DNA of 31,660 nucleotides from a virus (Duplodnaviria > Caudoviricetes). The notes under the pieces were generated by a model. The model was not told the origin of the DNA. It worked only from the letters and a program-made list of their open reading frames with translations, and did not search any database. Location: IMG/VR virus record IMGVR_UViG_3300030207_001746, positions 1-31,660 of that record. One strand, written 5' to 3'. Below, piece by piece: positions 20,511 through 31,660 of the stretch. The position numbers were made by a program, and so were the translations under genes. Each line of letters starts with the position of its first letter. The stretch's first letter is position 1.

Positions 20511-23500
20511 ATGCAAGAATTATATACAAAGTTATTTCAACAAGAGCTTTATACAAACTCGTTTGAGCAGTTTAAAATAGACTATGGTTCACCAGAGGGT
20601 GCTAGAGAACTATACAATAAACTTGCTGTACAAAGCGATTTGTATACTAATAGTTTTAGTGATTTTCAAAGAGATTACTCTATTGGTTTACCTGAATCAC
20701 AGCCTACTTCGCAGGGTAATACAGTAAAGCGTAATATAGGCAGCACTATGCTTGATGTAGGTGTCACTCGTTCTAGCGCAACTGAAGAAGACAACACAAC
20801 GACTGGACTTTTTGGAACGCAGATAAAGAGCACTTTTGATGTTTCACAAAACATACAGATGCCTGAGGTTTCCTACGATATGCCGGACACTACTGGAGTT
20901 ATTGATTTTGATCAATCATTACTTAACTTAAGCTTAGATGTACCAGAGCCAACAACTTCGCAAGTTCCCGAATATACAAATGAAAACGATCCGTTTGGCT
21001 TAGCTGCTAGCCTTGGTATAGACACGGGCACTCCTGAATATCAGAGAATGCTAGAGCTCGCGGCTCTTTTGCGCGAAGCAGAACAAAAGCGTTTAGAAGG
21101 TCCTACGCCAATGCAGATTTCTGAGGAAGAGCAGAGGATTACGGATTTAATGATGTACGGAGAAGAGCCGGTAGAAGAAGAGCCGTCAGAAGAAGATAAA
21201 GAAAAAGAGGCTCTTATAGCTAAGATGAGAGAAGAAGGCGCTGGTATTCTTGAATCACAACAACAGGGTTATAGTTCTGAAGAAAATCTTGTTAGAGCTA
21301 ACAATGCTGAAAAACCTGAGATACAAGGTATCAACAATTGGTATACTGAAAACAGTGATCGATTAAATAAAATCGAACTTGATACACCTGTAATATCACC
21401 TAACGCAACGGCAGAAGAGATTCAAAAGGCACAAGAGGCTATGCAAGAGCAGTGGTCTAATAAGGTAGAGGAGTTATATAATCAAGAGGTTGTAGAGCCG
21501 TATAACGAAGCTCTTAAAGTATATCAAAAAGCTGTAGCTACAAAAGAAAAGACAAAAGCTAGAGAAATTGTAACTGAGGTTATTAACAATAATATTGGTG
21601 GCTGGTGGTCTGAAGAGAATATGGCGAAAAACCTCAAAGAAGTACTTCCTGTTGAATACCAAATAGAAGAAGGCATTGGAGAGTACTCTGAAGGTACCGC
21701 TACGCGTCTTAGCGTTAATAATATAACTATAACTAATTCTCACGGTGTAGCAAGGAATTTTAATCTTAGAAGTAGCACGGAGTTTGCTAAAGAGCTATTT
21801 GAGTTTTTAGAAGAAGACCCTACTTTAACTGATGAAAAAGGGGAGGAGTGGGTAGAGCAAAAAGAAGCTTTTTCAAGAAATTGGCTAGATAATTATTTTG
21901 GAGAAGGCGGAAGCGGTTTCCATGCTTTTATGGACGACCCGCAACGTGTTGAAGACATACAAGCGGGAATTATTACAATAGATGATGCTCTTAAAGAAAT
22001 AAAAGGTCGTTTAGGTACTGAAGATGCTTGGACGTTATTTGGTGAAAAAGTTAGACAGGCTTATCCTGCTTTAACTGATTCAGATATAGATCACATTATT
22101 AAAGAAAGGTATCACGCCGAAATTGAGGCTCACAAAAACAAAGGTTTAGACAATTTAGCAGCTGGCTTTGATGAGAGATTATTACAAGGAGACATAACGC
22201 TTACCGAGCTCCACCCTGGCGTACCAGTTGGTGAGCATGATCCCGATAGGAATACTCTTAACTACAACGTAAATGTTTATCAAGCTAAAGAAGGACGAAC
22301 CGTAAGCATAAAAGACGCAGAACAATTCTTTAAAACATATACTGCCTCTCAGATTAATACTATTGAGGATCCTTTGATGAGAGAGTTGGCTAGCATCAAC
22401 ATGTTATTAGATAATCAAGAAAACTTGCGTTACGCTGAGATTCAATTTTATCTAAACAAAAGAGATCAGATCATACAGCAGATTAAAGAGGAAGGTGGAG
22501 AATATGAAATGCTATTTGATTTAACTACAGGGCAATTAATTAGACCAGTTGGTAAAGACAATCCATTTGTTACCGAAAATACTGAAGACGTTACTGGAGA
22601 AATACAGCAGCAAGAAAAAGAATTAAGAGCAGAATTTGCAAGTAATCCACACTTAACGCCAAGAGATATGGCTAGAGAGGCTTACGAAAAAAATGCTAAG
22701 GCTCTAGCTGTTTTAAACGCGCAGCTAAACGAAGTTCAAAGATTTGAGTTTTATCGACCGGAACTTACTTTAGAGGAACGGGTTCAAGTTAGTGAGCCTA
22801 GTACACGCGCAGGTGTAGATGTTAGAGATATGACCGTGCGCGAGGCGTTGATTAAGTCTAACTATGCTGATGGAGCCGAGGACTTTATTGAATACCATAC
22901 AGACGCATTTGGATCTAAAGTACAAGGCGGTCAGATCATGTATTTCCACGCTTTTAGCGCAGATGGAGTTGCACAGAGAAATATATTAAGGCAGCAAATG
23001 CGAGACCTTAAAATACAGCAAGAGGCATTAAAAAGAATATATCTTTTAAATGAAGATGTTATATCTATAGAAAAGAATAACGCTCAAAACTATACAAAGT
23101 TAGCTATTATGAGTCTGCCTTTTGCAGGTACTATAGGGAACATGTTAGCTCCTGAAACCATGGCTTTTGGTGGTGTTCCGACAGAAAGAGAAGTTATAGA
23201 TGAGTATATTCCTACTTTAACTAACGCTGGTATTGAAATTAGAGGAGATCAAAAAGCTTATGTTGATCGAAGTTTTGGAGAACAATTTGGCGAGGGGCTT
23301 GCTTCTAGCGCAGGTATACTTGTTGAGTTTGCCATAGCAAACAAGGCTGCAGCTGCATTAAGAACAGCTAGAATTTTTTCTGGTGGTACTAAAAGCTTAG
23401 ATATGATACTCAAAGCGCATAAAGCTAAGAGATATTGGAACGGAAAACAAGCTTTAACTGTAGCTCAAGCAACAGCAGCGGCAAACAACGCTAAATTACC

Positions 23501-26500
23501 TTTGTCAGTGTACTTAGCTCAAGGTGGTTATAACGCAACTAAAAGCGCTAGCTTAGCTTCTAAAGTTGGAGTTTTTCTAACTGAGTCTACTATTGAAGGG
23601 GCAAAGTTTGCTTCTTTGCCTTCTTCTTCAGGCGCAAGACTAGAGTCGTTTGCTACTGGTTTTGGCTTTGGTGGTGCAACACAGATTTTATCACCGATGC
23701 TAGGTACTATAAATGCGAGCACGTTTAGTCCAGCCTTTCAAAAAACTAGATTTGGCGCTATGATGGCTAACAACGCTCCAAGGCTAGAAAAAATATATAA
23801 CTTAGCGTTTAAAGGACCTTTAAGCTTCACAGTTGGTAGTGAAGTTGGAGAACTTGGACTTGCTTTGACTGACGACTTAATGGGTTACGAAGAGTTTAGT
23901 GGCATGATAGAAGAGCACTATGGCGATGGATCAAGTAACTTACAACGCTGGGCTAGCAACTGGGCTATGGGTACAGCTTTTGGTTTTACGCACGCTGCCG
24001 CTTACAAAAAAGCCGGTACAATAGAAAGTTTAAGAGAAGCTAAAAAAGAAGCAGAAGACGCTATCTTTGAAACACGAGACAACTACGTTATTAGAAATAA
24101 AAAAACAGGTGAAGTTTTTGAAGCACCTAGTAAGAAAAACTACCAGACAAAAGATTTTGAAATAATCGAAAGACCTGGTATGAGGAAGTGGCGTACTAAG
24201 AAAAAGAACGGAGAGCCCATGACTCAAGAATATCTTGTAGACATGTACCAGTTAAGTCAAAATTTATCGCAGCAATTAAGAAGAAGTGAAGATGGTTTAG
24301 ACTTAATAGATAGAACTATAGGCGCTTCAAGATTAAAGACTAGAACCTTAGAGCAAGTTAAGCACTATAAAGAAAAAGGCGCTAACGTTGAAGTAGAATA
24401 TGGTAGTCCTGAAACATACATAATACGAGATAAAAGAACTGGTAAGGTAAGAGAGGTTAACAAGAAGCCTAGTGGATCAGGCGCTGCTAACTACGAGATC
24501 TTAATGGAACCTATGGGTAATAGAAACGCAGAGGTCTATTACAAAGATAAAGACGGCAATATAATGGACGTCGGCTTAATGGGTAAAAAAGTTAAAGGCT
24601 CAACAGTAGTAGTAAGATATAACGTAGAAAAATTTGCAGAAGGATATGCTCCGCACGAGCTAGGTCACTCAGGTATGGAAATACTGTTTGGTACTAACGC
24701 TAGATTTAAAAGCGATTTCGTGCAAAAACTTATGGGTATAGCTAAAGAAATTAAACTTGGCGTAGGTCCAGATGGAGAGTTACCACTTTTTGAAAATCTT
24801 TACGATCAGATAGTAGAGCAGAACCGTTTATTTGATGTAGAAAAAACACCATGGGAAGCCGCTAAAGCAAAAGACTGGGAGCTATTTAGCCATATAGCTG
24901 AGCACTTATCTAAGCCAGAAAACTTAAGAGAGCTAAGAAAAGCAAACGCGTTTGGTAAAGTTAGAGATTTAGTTAGGCAAACTGTAGGAAAAGAATTAAA
25001 CCAAGAATATAACTTTACAAAAGAGGCAGACATAGTAGAGTTCTTTGGTAACTATATTGAAAGCATTAACAGAGGTAAGAACAGTTTAAAAGTGCTTGAG
25101 CATTTGCAAGATGTTATAGCTGAGCCAAGTAGCCCTGAGGCTAGAGAGATGGAAAGGCTTTACAACGAGCAAGGTATACATTTTACTGAAACAAGTAGAT
25201 TAGCTTCAGAGTCTAACAGACGACGTGATCTTATTAAAGAGAACGTTGATTTGTTTAAAAATAAGCCAGAAGGTTATGAGGCTAAAATGCAGGAAAATAT
25301 ACAAGCTATTAGATCAATAGATGATCTTTTAGTGATAAATAGACCTGCACAAAACGAATCAGACAACGCTAGAAAAGAAAGAGTAAATAGAATACATGCT
25401 GGCCATAAGGACGTTATGTTTAGCAAAGACTTAGTAGGTAGAGACGCTCAACGACAAGGGGAGGCTATTGATGCTATAATAAGTTCTTATAGAGGTAAGA
25501 CCATAGCTGTGGCTAAAAGTCAAGGAAGATTTGAAACGCCTACATTTGAGAACATGTCTAAGTCTGAAAGAGAAGATTTTGCATGGGATATTACTAGGCC
25601 AGAACTATTAAAACACCTAGATGCTTTTAATAGAAAGTTTAGAGAGACAGATGGAAAAGAAGGTATTGAAAATGATGATCTTGATGCTTACTTAAATTCG
25701 TACATTGTAAATAAACTAGGTACAGCATTAAAGAGACCTGGTATTGAAAAGACTGAATTTACAGGGACTACAACAGATTTAAAGCCAGGTCAAGAGCCAG
25801 CTTACACTCCTTCAGAAATGAAGTTGAACAATAAGACTGATGCTAGACTTAGAATAGATATAAGAGAAAGACTTACTGACAACGCTCCTGAAGAAAGAAA
25901 ATCAAAAATACAGGAAGGTATTAAAGAGCACGGTAAATTTGTTAAGGATTATATAGAAACAACGTCTGATGCACCTACTTCATATCGTGATTTAAAAAAT
26001 ATAAAAACTCCAAAAGAAATAGTTGACAAAGTATTTGGTAAGAACACTGCAGAGCGCATTGAAACCATAGGTAGAACTCTAGATATAGCTAAAAAATCTG
26101 CACTACCAGAAGGAACGTTATCTACTAGGACTGGTAACGTAGAACTAGAAGGTAAAGCTATTGGTGTAGCCAACACTCTACAAACAATTAATATAGCTAA
26201 AAAAGGTCAACCAGCAAACTACAAAGAGGTTTTATACGGTACTCCTAAAAAATTCGCAGAGTTTGTATCTAAAGAGACTGGAAGACTTACAGCTGAAGCA
26301 GATCCTACTGGTCAAGGCAATACACCTAAAGAATTACTTAAACTAAGTAGAGCTGAAACGCTTAAGAGGTTAGGTATAAAAGAAGTTGAAGTTGGTGGTG
26401 GTGAAGTTAGATATGACATTGACAATACGCTAGCTAAGGAATACGCTAGTGAACCTGGCTCTAAGAGCGAGAAGGCTATTGCACGAAACATAGAAGGTAT

Positions 26501-29500
26501 TAGAAAGAACTACATGGAAGAAGTAGTTAGAGGTATGACGTACCAGGTTGCCATGGAGAACTTGCCTGCTGTGTCTCAAAAGCTAGGTATTGCTACAGAG
26601 ATTTTAGCTAATCAGATTAGCGCGGGTAAAGCTAGACTTGCTAGTAAAACTTTAGAGATGAAAGATTTTACTGAGCAAATGGAGTTTTTAGATCAAATCG
26701 AAAGTAAAGAGTTTAAAGATTTGTATGAAAAAGCCGTGGCTGAAAGAGAAGAGAAGGCTTTTGAGCATGCTATGATAACTCACTTTGCAAACAACCCTGT
26801 TGAAAATATAAGCAAGACAGACATAAAGAACATTGCAAAGCAACTTGAAGCGCAGTTTACGTTTACAACTATGACGCCTAAGAGAGCTATTGAAGCGTCT
26901 ATGAAAGCCATTGCATACCCAAAAAGCTTGCAATCAATAGAGGCTAAGTATGGGTTTGAAGCTCTTGAAACAAAAAATCTATATGATACCATAGAAGGCA
27001 TTAGAGAAGGACAAGCCGCCTTTACTATGGAGGGTGGTATTATAGAGACTTTAACTCGAACTAAGGGTAAAGGAGCGTTTGAGGCTTTAATAAAAGAAGG
27101 TGTAAGTAAAGGAGCTGGTCTTGGTACTTATAGATCGCATAGAGAGTATGAAGTACGAAATAAAAGAACTGGAAAAGTAACGAAGACTAACAAGAGGCCT
27201 AGCAAATCAGAAATTGAAAACGCTGAAAATCCATTAGAAATTTTAAGCGAAACCCTTATTAAGACTGCAGAGCAGAACATGATTGAGGGAAACACCGAGT
27301 TTAGAAGCGACAACAGGTTTGCTTTGTTTGAAACAGCTGCTAAAGCACAAGAGGCTGCTGATGGTGTGTACGCTAGACTAGAGTCTGAAGGTGTTAAGCT
27401 AAAAGACTACGAAGGATCTTCACGTGCAAATTCAGACGCGGTTGGTAAGAAAAAAAGAGTATTAGAAGGAGTCACAGGAAAAGACGGAGCGTGGGATTTA
27501 AAAGCCCGCGAAGAGTTTGATAGGATAGGCGAAGAAAATAAAAAAGCTTTATTTGATGGTAAAGGAAAGTCATCTGTAGTAGAAGCAATGAAAGATATGT
27601 ACGTTAATGGCGACATAACGTACCGTCAAGTTAGGCAAATCGTTGAAGGGCAAGGAGGTCCTATGGAAGGCTTGATTAAAAAATCAGCTTCGCTAGCCGT
27701 GTTACCTGAAACGAGTAGAGCAGATATAGAGGCTGTATACGGAAAAAATTGGGTTCTTGAACATACTACTCCAGCTCAGTACGTAAAAGCTAGAATATAT
27801 GATTACATATTATCTGGAGGTAAGGCGCCACAAGCTAAAGCCTTAAAACTTACTCTTAGAGATTATCATACTACTCTTATACCAGAGTCGTTAGACACAA
27901 TGGTAAATAAAATATTAAAAACTGATTTACCATCGTTCCACGTACCAGGTATGGATCCTATAGAATCTAGGTATTATATGGCTAACCATAAATCTCCTTT
28001 TGATTTATCGTTAGTTAACTATAGAAATAATAAAGTCTATAGCAAAACAGGTTTATCTGTTGCTGAAATATCTAGAAGAGGTGCTATGCTTAGAGAGTCT
28101 TATGCAGAGATGATAAGCCCTCGTTTAGCATCAAAAAATTTAGAGCCTACCCGTATGCTTGAGCAAATGGAAACTATGAAGAAGGCTGTAGCTAATTCTA
28201 GAAATCCTCGTGCTAAGAAGAAGGGTATGAGCACGTTTGATTTTGACGAGACTTTAATTGTAGATGGAGAAAACTTCGTTGTAGCAACTAAAGATGGTAA
28301 GCGTGTAGAAATTAGTAGCGAAAAGTGGCCTATAGAAGGTCCTAAGTATGCTGAGCAAGGGTATGAATTTGACTTTTCTGATTTTGCAAATGTAAGAGGT
28401 GGTACCGACGGGCCACTGCTACAGAAGATGAGAAATCAAATAAGCAAGTATGGATCAAACAATGTGTTTGTATTGACAGCCAGACAACAAGCGTCGGCTG
28501 AACCTATACATAGTTGGCTTAAAAGCAAAGGCATAGACATACCTTTAGAAAATATTACTGGTCTAGGCAAGAGTGAAGGCGCGGCAAAGGCTCAGTGGAT
28601 GTTAGAAAAGTTTGCTGAAGGTTATAACGATATGTACTTTGTCGATGACGCTTTACCTAACGTTGAAGCTGTTAGAGAAGTGTTAAGCCAACTTGATATT
28701 AAGTCTAACGTTCAACAAGCGCGTAGACTAGCTTCGAAAGACATGAACTTAGAGTTCAATCAAATGATTGAGCGTAAAACTGGCATTGGTTACCAAAAGA
28801 TATTTAGCGGAGCTAAAGGTAAAATGCTAGGTAAGCGTAGATATACTCAGTCAATTGTAGTGCCTGGCGCTCAAGACTTTATGGGCCTTATGCAAAACTT
28901 TATGGGTAAAGGTAAACGAGGTGATGCTGACAGAGCTTTCTTTGAAGAAAACTTAGTTAAGCCTTTTGCTAGAGCTACTAAAGAAATGAACGAAGCTAGA
29001 CAAAGATCTTCTGAAGATCTTAAGGCTTTGTATAAAGATATACCTAGTGTTAAAAGAAAATTAAACAAACGACTACCTGGATCTGCTTTTACGTATGATC
29101 AAGCTATTAGGACTTACTTATGGGAGAAAAACGGTTTTAATATTCCTGAGTTATCTATGAGAGATTTAAAGTCACTGACTGATGTTGTTAACAAAGACGT
29201 TGAATTACGTAACTTTGCCGAGCAATTAAATATGATAGGTAAAGGCACGTGGGTTGAACCATCAGCTAACTGGATAGGTGAAACTATTGTATCAGATTTG
29301 TTTAACTTAAATAACAAAGCTAGACGAGCTGAATACCTACAAGAGTGGCAAGAAAATATCGACACTATATTCTCACCAACTAATCTAAATAAAATTGAAG
29401 CCACTCAAGGTAGTAAATTTAGAGAAGCTCTTGAAGATTCTATATATAGAATGAAGACAGGTTCTAATAGACCTACAGGTGCTAATAGGTTAACTAATCA

Positions 29501-31076
29501 GTTTAATAATTGGATCAACGGTTCTGTTGGAGCTACGATGTTCTTGAATATGAGATCGGCTATGCTTCAGACTATATCCGCAACAAACTACATTAACTGG
29601 TCGTTTAACAATCCGGTTGCTGCGGCAAGAGCATTTGGTAACCAAAAACAATATTGGAAAGATTTTTCTATGTTATGGAACTCACCAATGCTTAAGCAAA
29701 GAAGATCTGGTCTTGAGTATAACGTGCAAGAAGCTGAGCTTGCAGCTGCTATGGCTGGCCAGAAAAACAAGGCTAAAGCAGCTGTTGCTTGGTTAATTAA
29801 AAAAGGATTTACGCCTACGCAAGTTGCTGATAGTTTTGCAATATGTGGCGGTGGTGCTACCTACTATAGAAATAAAGTAAGAGAGCTTACGAAGCAAGGC
29901 GTAAGTAAAGCTGAGGCTCAAGAAAGAGCTTTTTTAGAATTCCAAGAGTTAACAGAAACTAATCAGCAATCATCGAGAGCAGATCTTATATCTCAACAAC
30001 AAGCGTCTGGTTTAGGTAGAACTATACTTGCGTGGTCTAATACACCTATGCAGTATATGCGTATACAAGAAAAAGCGGCTAGAGATATAGTAAACGGTAG
30101 AGGTGACTTAAAAGCTAACATGTCTAAGATCGCTTATTACGGAGTTATACAGTCAGCTATATTCTCTTCATTACAAAACGCTTTGTTTAGATGGGGACTA
30201 GAGGAAGAAGACGAAAACAACGAAGCTGATAATAAAGATTTAAACGCATCTATTGATAGAACGGTAAATACAGTTATTGATTCTCAACTTAGAGGTACTG
30301 GTGTTCTTGGTGCAGCGCTAAGTGCTATACGTAACACGGTGCTTGAGTTTGAAAAGCAAGAGGCGAAAGCTTATGACGATAGTTTTTTGAGCTCTCCAGA
30401 TCACAGTAGAACTGTTCTTCAGCTAACTAGTTTTTCTCCTGTTATAAGTTCTAAGTTACGTAAGCTATACTCAGCAGGTAATGAATGGAACTATAATAGA
30501 GAGGCTATAAGCGAGATGGGTTTTGATATTGATAATCCTGCTATACACGCTGGCGCAAACGTACTTGAAGCTGTAACTAACTTGCCTTTCGCTAGACTTG
30601 TACAGAAAGTAGATAACATACAAGGCGTGCTAGATAGTAATAACGAAACTTGGCAACGCGTGGCGTTATTAATGGGTTATCCTAAGTGGCAGCTTGGTAT
30701 TGAAGATACGGAAGTTGAAGAAGCTAAGCAAAGAGGTAGAGATAGGATCAAAGCTATAAAAGACGCTGAAAGAGAGATAGAAAAACAACAAAAAGAGATA
30801 GTAAAAGCAGATGAAGAGCTTGCGGAAATAGAAGATAATATACTTGACCAGGACGAGGAGAGAGAGCAAGGCGCGAAAGAAGTTCAATGCGCTGCGGTAA
30901 GTAGATCCGGTAAGCGATGTTCAAATATGGCTTTACCTGGTGAAAACTTCTGCACAATACATATGCCAGTGCCGCAGCAAAAAGATGAGGTACAGTGCTC
31001 ACATATAAAGAAAGACGGCAAACGTTGTAAAATGAAAACTAAAAATAAATCAGGAAAATGCTACTACCACGATTAA
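20511..31076 (+). CDS. Giant internal virion/ejection polyvalent protein (3521 aa): zincin HExxH, sigma-like module, EHxxP module, HAD phosphatase, two CCCH Zn fingers
   Basis: Uninterrupted 10.5-kb ORF in the third ejection-gene slot. HELGH at aa 1382; DFDETL at aa 2577 with LTAR and FVDD; RLAS at aa 1563, 2042, 2538 and 2739; two C-x9-C-x10-C-x2-H motifs at the C-terminus. Confidence 0.8.
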   Translation: MQELYTKLFQQELYTNSFEQFKIDYGSPEGARELYNKLAVQSDLYTNSFSDFQRDYSIGLPESQPTSQGNTVKRNIGSTMLDVGVTRSSATEEDNTTTGLFGTQIKSTFDVSQNIQMPEVSYDMPDTTGVIDFDQSLLNLSLDVPEPTTSQVPEYTNENDPFGLAASLGIDTGTPEYQRMLELAALLREAEQKRLEGPTPMQISEEEQRITDLMMYGEEPVEEEPSEEDKEKEALIAKMREEGAGILESQQQGYSSEENLVRANNAEKPEIQGINNWYTENSDRLNKIELDTPVISPNATAEEIQKAQEAMQEQWSNKVEELYNQEVVEPYNEALKVYQKAVATKEKTKAREIVTEVINNNIGGWWSEENMAKNLKEVLPVEYQIEEGIGEYSEGTATRLSVNNITITNSHGVARNFNLRSSTEFAKELFEFLEEDPTLTDEKGEEWVEQKEAFSRNWLDNYFGEGGSGFHAFMDDPQRVEDIQAGIITIDDALKEIKGRLGTEDAWTLFGEKVRQAYPALTDSDIDHIIKERYHAEIEAHKNKGLDNLAAGFDERLLQGDITLTELHPGVPVGEHDPDRNTLNYNVNVYQAKEGRTVSIKDAEQFFKTYTASQINTIEDPLMRELASINMLLDNQENLRYAEIQFYLNKRDQIIQQIKEEGGEYEMLFDLTTGQLIRPVGKDNPFVTENTEDVTGEIQQQEKELRAEFASNPHLTPRDMAREAYEKNAKALAVLNAQLNEVQRFEFYRPELTLEERVQVSEPSTRAGVDVRDMTVREALIKSNYADGAEDFIEYHTDAFGSKVQGGQIMYFHAFSADGVAQRNILRQQMRDLKIQQEALKRIYLLNEDVISIEKNNAQNYTKLAIMSLPFAGTIGNMLAPETMAFGGVPTEREVIDEYIPTLTNAGIEIRGDQKAYVDRSFGEQFGEGLASSAGILVEFAIANKAAAALRTARIFSGGTKSLDMILKAHKAKRYWNGKQALTVAQATAAANNAKLPLSVYLAQGGYNATKSASLASKVGVFLTESTIEGAKFASLPSSSGARLESFATGFGFGGATQILSPMLGTINASTFSPAFQKTRFGAMMANNAPRLEKIYNLAFKGPLSFTVGSEVGELGLALTDDLMGYEEFSGMIEEHYGDGSSNLQRWASNWAMGTAFGFTHAAAYKKAGTIESLREAKKEAEDAIFETRDNYVIRNKKTGEVFEAPSKKNYQTKDFEIIERPGMRKWRTKKKNGEPMTQEYLVDMYQLSQNLSQQLRRSEDGLDLIDRTIGASRLKTRTLEQVKHYKEKGANVEVEYGSPETYIIRDKRTGKVREVNKKPSGSGAANYEILMEPMGNRNAEVYYKDKDGNIMDVGLMGKKVKGSTVVVRYNVEKFAEGYAPHELGHSGMEILFGTNARFKSDFVQKLMGIAKEIKLGVGPDGELPLFENLYDQIVEQNRLFDVEKTPWEAAKAKDWELFSHIAEHLSKPENLRELRKANAFGKVRDLVRQTVGKELNQEYNFTKEADIVEFFGNYIESINRGKNSLKVLEHLQDVIAEPSSPEAREMERLYNEQGIHFTETSRLASESNRRRDLIKENVDLFKNKPEGYEAKMQENIQAIRSIDDLLVINRPAQNESDNARKERVNRIHAGHKDVMFSKDLVGRDAQRQGEAIDAIISSYRGKTIAVAKSQGRFETPTFENMSKSEREDFAWDITRPELLKHLDAFNRKFRETDGKEGIENDDLDAYLNSYIVNKLGTALKRPGIEKTEFTGTTTDLKPGQEPAYTPSEMKLNNKTDARLRIDIRERLTDNAPEERKSKIQEGIKEHGKFVKDYIETTSDAPTSYRDLKNIKTPKEIVDKVFGKNTAERIETIGRTLDIAKKSALPEGTLSTRTGNVELEGKAIGVANTLQTINIAKKGQPANYKEVLYGTPKKFAEFVSKETGRLTAEADPTGQGNTPKELLKLSRAETLKRLGIKEVEVGGGEVRYDIDNTLAKEYASEPGSKSEKAIARNIEGIRKNYMEEVVRGMTYQVAMENLPAVSQKLGIATEILANQISAGKARLASKTLEMKDFTEQMEFLDQIESKEFKDLYEKAVAEREEKAFEHAMITHFANNPVENISKTDIKNIAKQLEAQFTFTTMTPKRAIEASMKAIAYPKSLQSIEAKYGFEALETKNLYDTIEGIREGQAAFTMEGGIIETLTRTKGKGAFEALIKEGVSKGAGLGTYRSHREYEVRNKRTGKVTKTNKRPSKSEIENAENPLEILSETLIKTAEQNMIEGNTEFRSDNRFALFETAAKAQEAADGVYARLESEGVKLKDYEGSSRANSDAVGKKKRVLEGVTGKDGAWDLKAREEFDRIGEENKKALFDGKGKSSVVEAMKDMYVNGDITYRQVRQIVEGQGGPMEGLIKKSASLAVLPETSRADIEAVYGKNWVLEHTTPAQYVKARIYDYILSGGKAPQAKALKLTLRDYHTTLIPESLDTMVNKILKTDLPSFHVPGMDPIESRYYMANHKSPFDLSLVNYRNNKVYSKTGLSVAEISRRGAMLRESYAEMISPRLASKNLEPTRMLEQMETMKKAVANSRNPRAKKKGMSTFDFDETLIVDGENFVVATKDGKRVEISSEKWPIEGPKYAEQGYEFDFSDFANVRGGTDGPLLQKMRNQISKYGSNNVFVLTARQQASAEPIHSWLKSKGIDIPLENITGLGKSEGAAKAQWMLEKFAEGYNDMYFVDDALPNVEAVREVLSQLDIKSNVQQARRLASKDMNLEFNQMIERKTGIGYQKIFSGAKGKMLGKRRYTQSIVVPGAQDFMGLMQNFMGKGKRGDADRAFFEENLVKPFARATKEMNEARQRSSEDLKALYKDIPSVKRKLNKRLPGSAFTYDQAIRTYLWEKNGFNIPELSMRDLKSLTDVVNKDVELRNFAEQLNMIGKGTWVEPSANWIGETIVSDLFNLNNKARRAEYLQEWQENIDTIFSPTNLNKIEATQGSKFREALEDSIYRMKTGSNRPTGANRLTNQFNNWINGSVGATMFLNMRSAMLQTISATNYINWSFNNPVAAARAFGNQKQYWKDFSMLWNSPMLKQRRSGLEYNVQEAELAAAMAGQKNKAKAAVAWLIKKGFTPTQVADSFAICGGGATYYRNKVRELTKQGVSKAEAQERAFLEFQELTETNQQSSRADLISQQQASGLGRTILAWSNTPMQYMRIQEKAARDIVNGRGDLKANMSKIAYYGVIQSAIFSSLQNALFRWGLEEEDENNEADNKDLNASIDRTVNTVIDSQLRGTGVLGAALSAIRNTVLEFEKQEAKAYDDSFLSSPDHSRTVLQLTSFSPVISSKLRKLYSAGNEWNYNREAISEMGFDIDNPAIHAGANVLEAVTNLPFARLVQKVDNIQGVLDSNNETWQRVALLMGYPKWQLGIEDTEVEEAKQRGRDRIKAIKDAEREIEKQQKEIVKADEELAEIEDNILDQDEEREQGAKEVQCAAVSRSGKRCSNMALPGENFCTIHMPVPQQKDEVQCSHIKKDGKRCKMKTKNKSGKCYYHD
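20517..20678 (+). repeat. Tandem ~24-aa peptide repeat (two copies) at the N-terminus of the giant protein
   Basis: ELYTKLFQQELYTNSFEQFKIDY (20517-20585) versus ELYNKLAVQSDLYTNSFSDFQRDY (20607-20678). Confidence 0.85.
24084..27251 (+). repeat. Three dispersed copies of a ~30-aa basic module inside the giant protein
   Basis: YVIRNKKTGEV...PS...FEIIE (24084-24170), YIIRDKRTGKV...KPS...YEILME (24417-24509) and YEVRNKRTGKV...RPS...LEILSE (27147-27251). Confidence 0.8.
30888..31070 (+). repeat. Two tandem C-x9-C-x10-C-x2-H zinc-finger-like motifs
   Basis: CAAVSRSGKRCSNMALPGENFCTIH (30888-30962) and CSHIKKDGKRCKMKTKNKSGKCYYH (30996-31070), each preceded by EVQ. Confidence 0.85.
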
Positions 31077-31660
31077 GTTTATTACTAACCTTACTATTTA
31101 GCTGTACAGTACTACAAGCTCAAGAGTTAAAGAAAGCATTTAAGTTTTCTACTTTTTATGCAGCTGTCAATGGAGGTAACTCCGTGTCAGATCAGACTGT
31201 ATACTCTGTTACTAACGGGCTAACTCAAGAAACTATAGCAACACCGTTTGACTATAGCTTATCTATGGGTGTTCGTAAAATCGCTAGGTTTGGTTATGAA
31301 AACAGAGCTAACGCTTTTTATGACGGATCAGAGACATCTTGGTCTGCTGATGCTAATATAGGTAAGCGAAACGGTATAGAGTTTCTTGGAGAAGTTACAT
31401 ACGAAAGACAGCAAGGCCGGGAGTTCTTTAATCAACACCACTTTTTTCGTTACATCGGAGATAAAGTTATGGCAAAGGTTGAATACCTTGAAGACGGGTT
31501 TGCAGACATTGAATACTTTGAAGGATCACAACGATTTCGACTTAAGCTTGGTAACAAGTTTTCTTTGCACGCAGGTGTCGCACAACGTATCTCAGAGCCT
31601 TACGGATATGATCCACTTGAAGAGTGGAAGCTGGCAACAGGAGACATACACTATACTTAC
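31058..31660 (+). CDS. Secreted protein with signal peptide, probable outer-membrane beta-barrel (3'-truncated; absent from the ORF track)
   Basis: Manual translation gives 201 open codons to the window end: MLLPRLSLLLTLLFSCTVLQA-QELKKAFKFSTFYAAVNGG...FDYSLSMGVRKIARFGYE...IEFLGEVTYERQQG...FSLHAGVAQR. It overlaps the giant gene by 19 nt. Confidence 0.75.
   Translation, partial: MLLPRLSLLLTLLFSCTVLQAQELKKAFKFSTFYAAVNGGNSVSDQTVYSVTNGLTQETIATPFDYSLSMGVRKIARFGYENRANAFYDGSETSWSADANIGKRNGIEFLGEVTYERQQGREFFNQHHFFRYIGDKVMAKVEYLEDGFADIEYFEGSQRFRLKLGNKFSLHAGVAQRISEPYGYDPLEEWKLATGDIHYTY

Follow-up and report, generated by a model that had tools for sequence, protein, structure and literature searches.

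The window analysed here is a 31,660-nucleotide stretch of an uncultured, marine-type phage of the class Caudoviricetes (IMG/VR record IMGVR_UViG_3300030207_001746), in which a morphogenesis block encoded on one strand comprises genes for terminase, portal, a scaffold-like protein, capsid, two ring-like proteins and muzzle, followed by small genes and a giant open reading frame (ORF). The product of this ORF is likely a virion-packaged polyvalent protein of the ejection or cargo type, judging from its sequence and gene position, and contains a zincin-like metallopeptidase followed by several other modules (Table 1). The peptide RLAS occurs in it four times, and sequence comparison with homologues identifies these copies as the window's version of a Ser-anchored tag of module joints.

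Table 1. Features of the giant ORF and of the two genes preceding it (nucleotide positions of the window; aa, amino acids)
Feature	Position	Strand	Remarks
Two small genes, 227 and 404 aa	18601..20508	+	upstream of giant ORF
Giant ORF, 3521 aa	20511..31076	+	end gene of head-tail-cargo block
Variable N-terminal third	20511..24500	+	weakly hydrophobic Gly/Ala-rich stretches at aa ~860-950; tags at background
Zincin-like metallopeptidase domain	24513..25070	+	H1382-E-L-G-H1386 (24654), third-ligand candidate E1457 (24879)
Junction tag J1, RLASE, aa 1563	25197..25211	+	between protease and module 1
Module 1	25350..26588	+	conserved in 62/62; weak likeness of N-terminal part to sigma-70 region 2
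Junction tag J2, RLASK, aa 2042	26634..26648	+	between module 1 and module 2
Module 2 core	27456..28073	+	invariant E2417/H2418, then Pro, downstream Asp; in 47/62
Junction tag J3, RLASK, aa 2538	28122..28136	+	ahead of HAD module
HAD-fold phosphatase-like domain	28221..28700	+	motifs I-IV; in 56/62
Junction tag J4, RLASK, aa 2739	28725..28739	+	directly before conserved C-domain
Conserved ~650-aa C-domain, no known family	28746..30710	+
Two CCCH-like zinc fingers, C-terminus	30873..31073	+	DUF5763, zf-C3Hc3H, zf-TRM13_CCCH, all under cut-off

An initial annotation of the window had reported the four RLAS copies, each written in different codons and all located downstream of the HELGH motif, as boundaries of pieces of 1562, 479, 496, 201 and 783 aa; positions, codons and lengths proved correct, and RLAS is absent from aa 1–1562, where a single LASK without a preceding R occurs at aa 1015. 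The expected number of RLAS copies in this protein is 0.077. Among 2000 shuffles, performed globally or within 50-aa local windows, some 4-mer reached four copies in 5% (global) or 10% (local), and some 5-mer reached three copies in 0.5% and 1.9%, respectively. For the window protein taken alone the repeat is therefore a modest signal (P 0.005–0.10), suggestive only, and it is the homologues that decide. A chance repeat in a long protein rich in Lys, Ala and Ser, for which the 5–10% of shuffles with a four-copy 4-mer could be cited, is refuted by the junction enrichment and its replication in held-out proteins described below, and its probability is negligible.

A Ser-anchored tag at homologous module joints

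Homologous loci (L numbers below) were collected with a protease query, which gave two loci, and with a C-domain query, of which the best 80 of 162 viral matches were taken and the best 80 of 439 metagenome matches contributed 79 loci. The resulting 162 proteins, including that of the window, were reduced to 62 non-redundant ones with less than 80% C-domain identity, the presence of HExxH being required. The order of modules is constant in the family: a variable N-terminus, the zincin, module 1, a variable part containing the EH..P core, the HAD domain, and the C-domain. The tagged joints are those between the protease and the sigma-2-like module 1, between the latter and the HNH-like module 2, between module 2 and the HAD domain, and between the HAD domain and the C-domain. 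At the J4 position, Ser is found in 56 of the 62 proteins, followed by Lys in 41/62 and preceded by Phe in 34/62. The family tag is Ser-anchored and mostly reads K-F-S-K, with L/F-A-S in the clade of the window. Among words of the type K/R-x-S-K/R, J1 shows a different preference: Phe occupies x in 9 of 68 there, against 24 of 44 (J2) and 40 of 63 (J4).

A position-specific scoring matrix (PSSM) of the tag, scored leave-one-out over the 62 relatives, matched 79 of 11,998 junction-window positions versus 54 of 60,797 positions elsewhere between the protease and the C-domain, an enrichment of about 7-fold; composition-kept shuffles of the junction windows gave 12.8 ± 3.2 matches. The PSSM threshold was exceeded at 17/62 J1, 28/62 J2 and 24/55 J3 joints, compared with 4% of 1,222 control windows. 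The J1 and J2 windows rest on a module 1 profile whose seed lay between two L018 tags and represent positional homology rather than an independently defined boundary, and the J3 and J4 windows rest on the edges of the HAD domain and the C-domain. J1–J3 lie in gap-rich, weakly conserved stretches of the alignment; the exposure of tags in linkers was judged from such gaps and conservation alone.

A protease profile search of 1.84 billion representatives revealed 1,965 relatives (clusters at 50% identity), and 66 of the best 150, which were long enough and less than 60% identical to the first set, were used as held-out proteins. The enrichment was replicated in this set, with 74 matches in 9,807 junction positions versus 52 in 50,830 elsewhere; the 1,239 positions immediately ahead of the C-domain contained 42 matches, and the background amounted to 35 in 46,529 upstream of HExxH and 20 in 38,023 in the C-domain. 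The held-out architectures were diverse, including proteins with all four modules (22), without HAD (16), without the nuclease-like module (8), with neither of them (13), and truncated ones (7), and the J4 tag precedes the C-domain regardless of which module lies upstream. These combinations and the inserts described here give the protein the trait of polyvalent proteins, namely several unrelated domains in variable combinations. A DUF6934-like cargo domain was found at J1 (L016), at J2 (L041; L156, L036, L153) and at J4 (L063), bounded by tags on either side in every case, and a kinase insert located inside the HAD domain was untagged in four of four cases.

The border tag is thus kept at homologous joints despite differing cargo, and the proposal that RLAS is a domain-border signal stands in part: a peptide-level junction signal exists, and its spelling varies from protein to protein. 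Literal RLAS(K) was rejected as the signal, since its R and K are not conserved and close relatives of the window protein retain only (L/F)-A-S. Natural gene splits (L033, L037, L046, L070, L111, L133) were considered as evidence on joints and rejected, since the breaks are intradomain and resemble frameshifts. In the window protein, VMFSKDL at 25413–25433 (aa 1635), close to where module 1 begins, contains a family-type K/M-F-S-K word, which could be a relic of an ancestral J1 or a chance occurrence.

The tags of one protein resemble each other. The 4-mer at a protein's own J4 recurred 34 times in its own cargo region versus 9.0 ± 3.0 in 20,000 permutations, and 23 versus 3.3 times in the 49 proteins with tags other than KFSK; outside that region it was found three times on the upstream side and a single time in the C-domain. 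Site-resolved similarity of tags within a protein was 13.45 versus 10.70 ± 0.27 in the first set and 13.89 versus 12.11 ± 0.24 in 58 held-out proteins. When its own tag was compared with the J4 of its nearest relative, the protein's own tag was the better match in 40 of the 62 proteins, the worse in 18, and tied in four.

The conclusion of the initial annotation that the peptide rather than the DNA is conserved holds for the family: 94 of 182 codon pairs of tag copies were identical versus 101 ± 6 expected, and 13 of 19 proteins use both TCN and AGY codons for the Ser. These data bear on the idea that the repeats are scars of DNA duplication or of short-homology recombination shuffling the modules, the peptide being without a role. 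In line with it, inserts at J4 in L063, L149 and L020 are accompanied by a duplicate of the HAD tail together with its tag, the protease and C-domain trees disagree, and the DNA flanking the copies is a little more similar than random DNA (0.372 for 47 pairs versus 0.314), an excess that is also compatible with a longer peptide preference. However, codon identity does not exceed the expectation from codon usage, Ser switches between its two codon families, and the tag persists across proteins less than 60% identical, making such scars a very improbable explanation.

The protease domain and the reading of the tag

The zincin of the window retains HExxH and the third-ligand Glu and is a putative metallopeptidase on the basis of these residues. 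The H, E and H are invariant and the equivalent of E1457 is present in at least 90% of 62–64 aligned proteins, a set chosen for HExxH; in the whole collection, HExxH is found in 120 of 162 proteins, and most of the remainder are truncated upstream of the motif. Peptidase_M78 was matched by 4 of the 62 members, and weak profile matches covering the strand–HExxH part were obtained with the Streptomyces zinc endoprotease 1c7k (E 0.28) and PPEP 6fpc (E 4). In two protease lineages that appear to be separate (L047, L161 and L037; L048, L075 and L143), EExxH stands in place of HExxH, the downstream Glu being retained; a literature search on the activity of EExxH sites found nothing relevant. One homologue of 1,905 aa (L081:6320-12037) has neither a protease domain nor a HAD domain, its N-terminus runs straight into module 1, and clear tags are missing.

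Tags are confined to the region downstream of the protease, with background levels upstream and in the C-domain. When tags were assigned by hand to classes (13 small, 40 aromatic, 9 unlabelled), the classes required 7 changes on the protease tree versus 11.7 after shuffling, with none of 500 shuffles as low; on the C-domain tree, 9 changes were required and 9–17 of 500 shuffles were as low. Similarity of J4 followed similarity of the protease, located about 1,200 aa away, with the C-domain, HAD and module 1 controlled for (r 0.25, p 0.002); this correlation comprised 52 of the 62 proteins, about nine J4 anchors that scored poorly or lay on the following helix having been reset by hand (five) or dropped (four) and six HAD-less proteins left out. 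Module 1 similarity does not track the J4 tag. L071 combines a window-type protease with a back half from K-F-S lineages, and its tags read K-A-S-K. A search for protease residues predicting the tag class gave a top mutual information of 0.30 versus a 95% null of 0.285, is confounded by kinship, and was rejected as evidence.

The tags could instead be cut by another enzyme, either a separate phage maturation protease or a host protease. The prohead protease gp245 of SPN3US offers a precedent, cutting head and ejection proteins after AXE according to the relevant passages of PMC10052503; moreover, the window represents part of a genome, so a second protease gene could lie outside, and the EExxH variants retain tags. 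On the other hand, no tag was found in the capsid, scaffold, muzzle or terminase of the window, and the neighbouring ORFs (83,482 aa) contained no copy of a protein's own tag versus 1.1 expected, a comparison of low power; a host protease would also leave phage-specific variants changing in step unexplained. We regard cleavage by another enzyme as quite unlikely.

Other modules and the phage context

None of the modules was named above cut-off by Pfam, PHROGs or PDB profile searches. The 479-aa piece was described in the initial annotation as running from a sigma region 2-like to a helix-turn-helix-like segment; the former, in the N-terminal part of module 1, is upheld only weakly, by profile matches to the sigma factor chain 8b3z (E 0.21 and 0.89) and an atlas score of 0.90–0.91, recognition being below the threshold of the tool, with no Pfam match across 61 members, and the latter found no support in any search. 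Within the 496-aa piece, the annotation had overlooked the EH..P/HNH-like module 2, whose Glu-His pair is invariant in 47/47 aligned proteins. By its motif, this core may be akin to HNH/His-Me nucleases, in which a catalytic His lies in a beta-beta-alpha core with metal ligands; Pfam and PDB profiles gave no support for a nuclease identity, and profile comparison revealed no relation between modules 1 and 2.

HAD phosphatases carry motifs I (DxD), II (T/S), III (K) and IV (DD). The 201-aa piece does contain one complete HAD domain, as annotated, with D2577/D2579, T2656, K2693 and D2712/D2713 invariant or nearly so in 49/49 aligned proteins. It matched Pfam DUF2608 just below the cut-off (E 9e-5); DUF2608 was matched by 12 of 45 members, and PDB profiles gave no match. 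In L063, L059, L071 and L020 an AAA_33/zeta-like P-loop kinase is inserted into the HAD domain just past DxD, and the resulting fusion of a kinase with a phosphatase-like domain resembles polynucleotide kinase-phosphatases. Searches of GenBank phages by tblastn with the HAD domain and the C-domain found no match, and searches for stand-alone modules gave 7 and 82 matches, mostly fragments; one of 11 inspected (P0187) may be a free-standing HAD protein.

About 25 aa past J4, within the beginning of the C-domain, a K-x-F-S-x-A-K word (~28795–28820, aa ~2763–2770) is conserved in the family consensus and is invariant with respect to the tags. The C-terminal zinc-finger tail can be aligned in a minority of homologues. 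A segment of about 20 aa, Y-x-(I/V)-R-(N/D)-K-(K/R)-T-G-(E/K)-V, is present three times in the giant protein (24087–24150, 24420–24483 and 27150–27213; aa ~1193, 1304 and 2214), has one or two copies in the nearest relatives L001, L002 and L092 and none in L094, L095, L007, L093 and L006, and constitutes a small insert of recent spread. At the N-terminus, a short repeat at 20511–20680 (LYTNSF twice, QELYT twice) has similar counterparts in the syntenic proteins of phi38:1 and a spring phage.

The muzzle C-domain of the window matched PF25729 above cut-off. Matches of the capsid and terminase are to Elemovirus, Pervagoviridae, Pachyviridae, Maribacter phage Panino and one spring metagenome phage; for this reason, the host is likely flavobacterial. 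All of these phages have a giant gene in the position of the 3521-aa ORF. Among five such syntenic proteins searched, the Elemovirus one has a homologous zincin (E 2e-11) and the spring phage has two weak ones, whereas no zincin match was found in Panino, phi38:1 and phi18:3. None of the five matched the C-domain profile, and therefore packaging of the window protein is deduced from synteny and not from homology; phi18:3 gp123, which has been detected by tandem mass spectrometry according to its annotation, has no homology to the window protein detectable by profile search, and the Elemovirus protein is annotated as structural. In 54/62 homologues, Cys is absent from the sequence preceding the C-terminal fingers. 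The hydrophobic stretches of 58 full-length proteins number 77 in the N-terminal part, 58 in the C-domain and 11 in the cargo region. The scarcity of Cys and the location of hydrophobic stretches mainly outside the cargo fit an ejected protein.

The 227- and 404-aa genes likely encode companion ejection proteins, given their position; KLASL at aa 140 of the 227-aa protein is the sole window-type tag in the two. The ORF at 31058–31660, after the giant gene, has a signal-peptide-like start and an outer-membrane-like composition, no match in Pfam or PHROG, and a similar ORF in the same place in L111 and L117. In L117:1-8542, the end of the giant gene and the start of the next gene are present twice, and this contig is probably misassembled.

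Proposed processing after packaging and comparison with known systems

The tags are probably sites at which the zincin of the giant protein cleaves its own chain once packaging is complete. According to this model, the giant protein would be made and packaged whole and then likely ejected into a flavobacterial host, where the zincin, folded with its metal after ejection, would cut at the tags. Within x-(L/F)-A-S or K-F-S-K, the cut could precede or follow the hydrophobic residue. The cuts would free the C-domain and three pieces whose predicted functions, judged from motifs and weak matches, are those of a sigma-2-like protein, an HNH-like nuclease and a HAD phosphatase; a role of this cargo in host takeover, as suggested in the initial annotation, is hypothetical. 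The N-terminal third, which is likely an envelope-spanning or anchor part, would remain with the protease as one piece at the envelope. By analogy with the virion RNA polymerase (vRNAP) of phage N4, the C-domain is possibly a packaging handle, and the cargo would have to stay fused to it until packaging is over. We infer packaging and ejection from synteny, the near-absence of Cys, and the analogy with crAss cargo proteins and N4 vRNAP.

Several observations weigh against cleavage by the zincin. Many J1, J2 and J3 joints stay below the PSSM threshold, J4 is a short, well-conserved joint, the J3 of close relatives of the window protein drifts to RFAEK and RLAEK, and the DNA flanks of the copies show the excess likeness noted above. 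As for the protease, the hand-made tag classes were mapped on a poorly resolved tree with long branches, the coupling of protease and tag weakens to r 0.14 (p 0.05) when the clade of the window is removed, the C-domain adjoining J4 correlates equally well with the tag (r 0.2), no protease column clearly predicts the tag, the frameshifted locus L037 mixes tag types, and five of five EExxH homologues (L047, L161, L048, L075, L143) keep their tags. Finally, N4 vRNAP, which has an HExxH domain, is packaged unprocessed and is modelled as one chain after ejection, according to the passages on it in PMC5512222 and PMC13434306, respectively.

Some of these points would agree with a non-proteolytic joint signal, acting in docking, unfolding and refolding, or Ser modification during packaging or ejection of a chain that stays whole. 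The anchor Ser in 56/62 proteins, the tags of EExxH variants and the place of J4 within a conserved joint are all consistent with such a role, as is N4 vRNAP, whose HExxH-containing single chain is depicted in the relevant part of PMC13434306 as flexibly linked subdomains. However, it does not predict tags solely downstream of the protease or their change in step, unless the protein itself reads the tag, and Ser is replaced by Ala in RLAAK, RFAK and RYAK, which disfavours Ser modification, and likewise an N–O acyl shift at Ser, as a general rule. A non-proteolytic signal appears to us rather unlikely, and cleavage by the zincin remains the preferred explanation.

The class of proteins and the idea of self-processing have already been published; self-processing was proposed for phage polyvalent proteins in 2017 and has also been proposed for the cargo polyproteins of crAss-like phages, no sites being given in either case. 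Iyer et al. 2017 (PMC5512222), in the portions of the article relevant here, defined polyvalent proteins with a metallopeptidase (MPTase) domain and proposed autoproteolytic release of domains in the head or after injection; the MPTase has HExxH in the first C-terminal helix, Glu in the second as third metal ligand, and a three-stranded sheet with flanking helices, and its proteolysis is metal-dependent. Phage polyvalent proteins contain hub domains such as the MPTase, LPD families, ART and PBECR, and are packaged and delivered together with the DNA. The window protein is likewise a giant multi-domain phage protein with variable cargo and a putative MPTase with HExxH and a downstream Glu. Unlike those proteins, it has no above-cut-off match to the named LPD Pfam families, and sigma-2-like, HAD and C-domain were not found among the terms in the parts covered. 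The main-text portions of that article on the MPTase, cleavage site and linker contain no site motif, and a description of such a junction tag was not found in the open-access literature searched.

In crAss-like phages, the zincin of phi14:2 gp65 has been suggested to cleave a fused polyprotein, as outlined in the pertinent passages of 10.1101/2020.03.07.982082, and the ejection of cargo proteins of crAss001 is described in those of PMC10172136. Virion architecture is related, with two small and large cargo genes after the muzzle, as in phi14:2 gp65–gp67. However, profile searches of the window detected no RNA polymerase domain with DFDxD, an FDFDET stretch being part of the HAD domain, and the nearest cultured relatives are Elemovirus, Pervagoviridae and Pachyviridae and not Crassvirales. 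N4 vRNAP (gp50) resembles the giant protein in its length of about 3,500 aa, membrane-type N-terminus, HExxH domain and large helical C-terminal part, and is known to be ejected, according to the sections of PMC13434306 concerned; it differs in being packaged unprocessed, in its T7-like RNA polymerase, in the location of HExxH after the cargo, and in that the passages on it mention no junction tag. In SPN3US, a short motif also marks cuts in head-packed proteins, as described in part of PMC10052503, but there gp245 acts in trans on the N-terminal propeptides of numerous head proteins, including that of the capsid, whereas the tags considered here, where cuts are proposed, are internal, belong to one protein and lie downstream of its own protease. 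Passages on phi24B gp47 describe another packaged polyvalent protein carrying a metallopeptidase. The Elemovirus protein QMP86513 (3,694 aa) shares the gene position and the homologous zincin with that of the window but carries other cargo, without a C-domain or HAD profile match. In this Elemovirus giant protein (L086:2483-13567), R-F-Q, R-Q-Q and R-M-Q words were seen by eye at apparent joints downstream of the zincin (aa ~1683, ~2079 and ~2302).

The tag divides unannotated giant proteins into modules and yields predictions exact to the residue for hundreds of natural variants; different tags, EExxH variants, a protease-less homologue and a cultured relative with a homologous protease serve as internal controls. 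If the own protease reads the code, the family would supply small proteases with different short specificities. It is possible, and we propose it tentatively, that marine flavobacterial-type phages of a large family (1,965 clusters matching the protease profile) inject a polyprotein like those of viruses, whose own zinc protease reads a private, co-evolving code; all joints would be rewritten in step upon change of the protease or its replacement by recombination, and new cargo would be taken up as tag-flanked cassettes. If so, these phages would possess a programmable, pre-transcriptional release of effectors, and the family would represent a natural library of orthogonal sequence-specific proteases.

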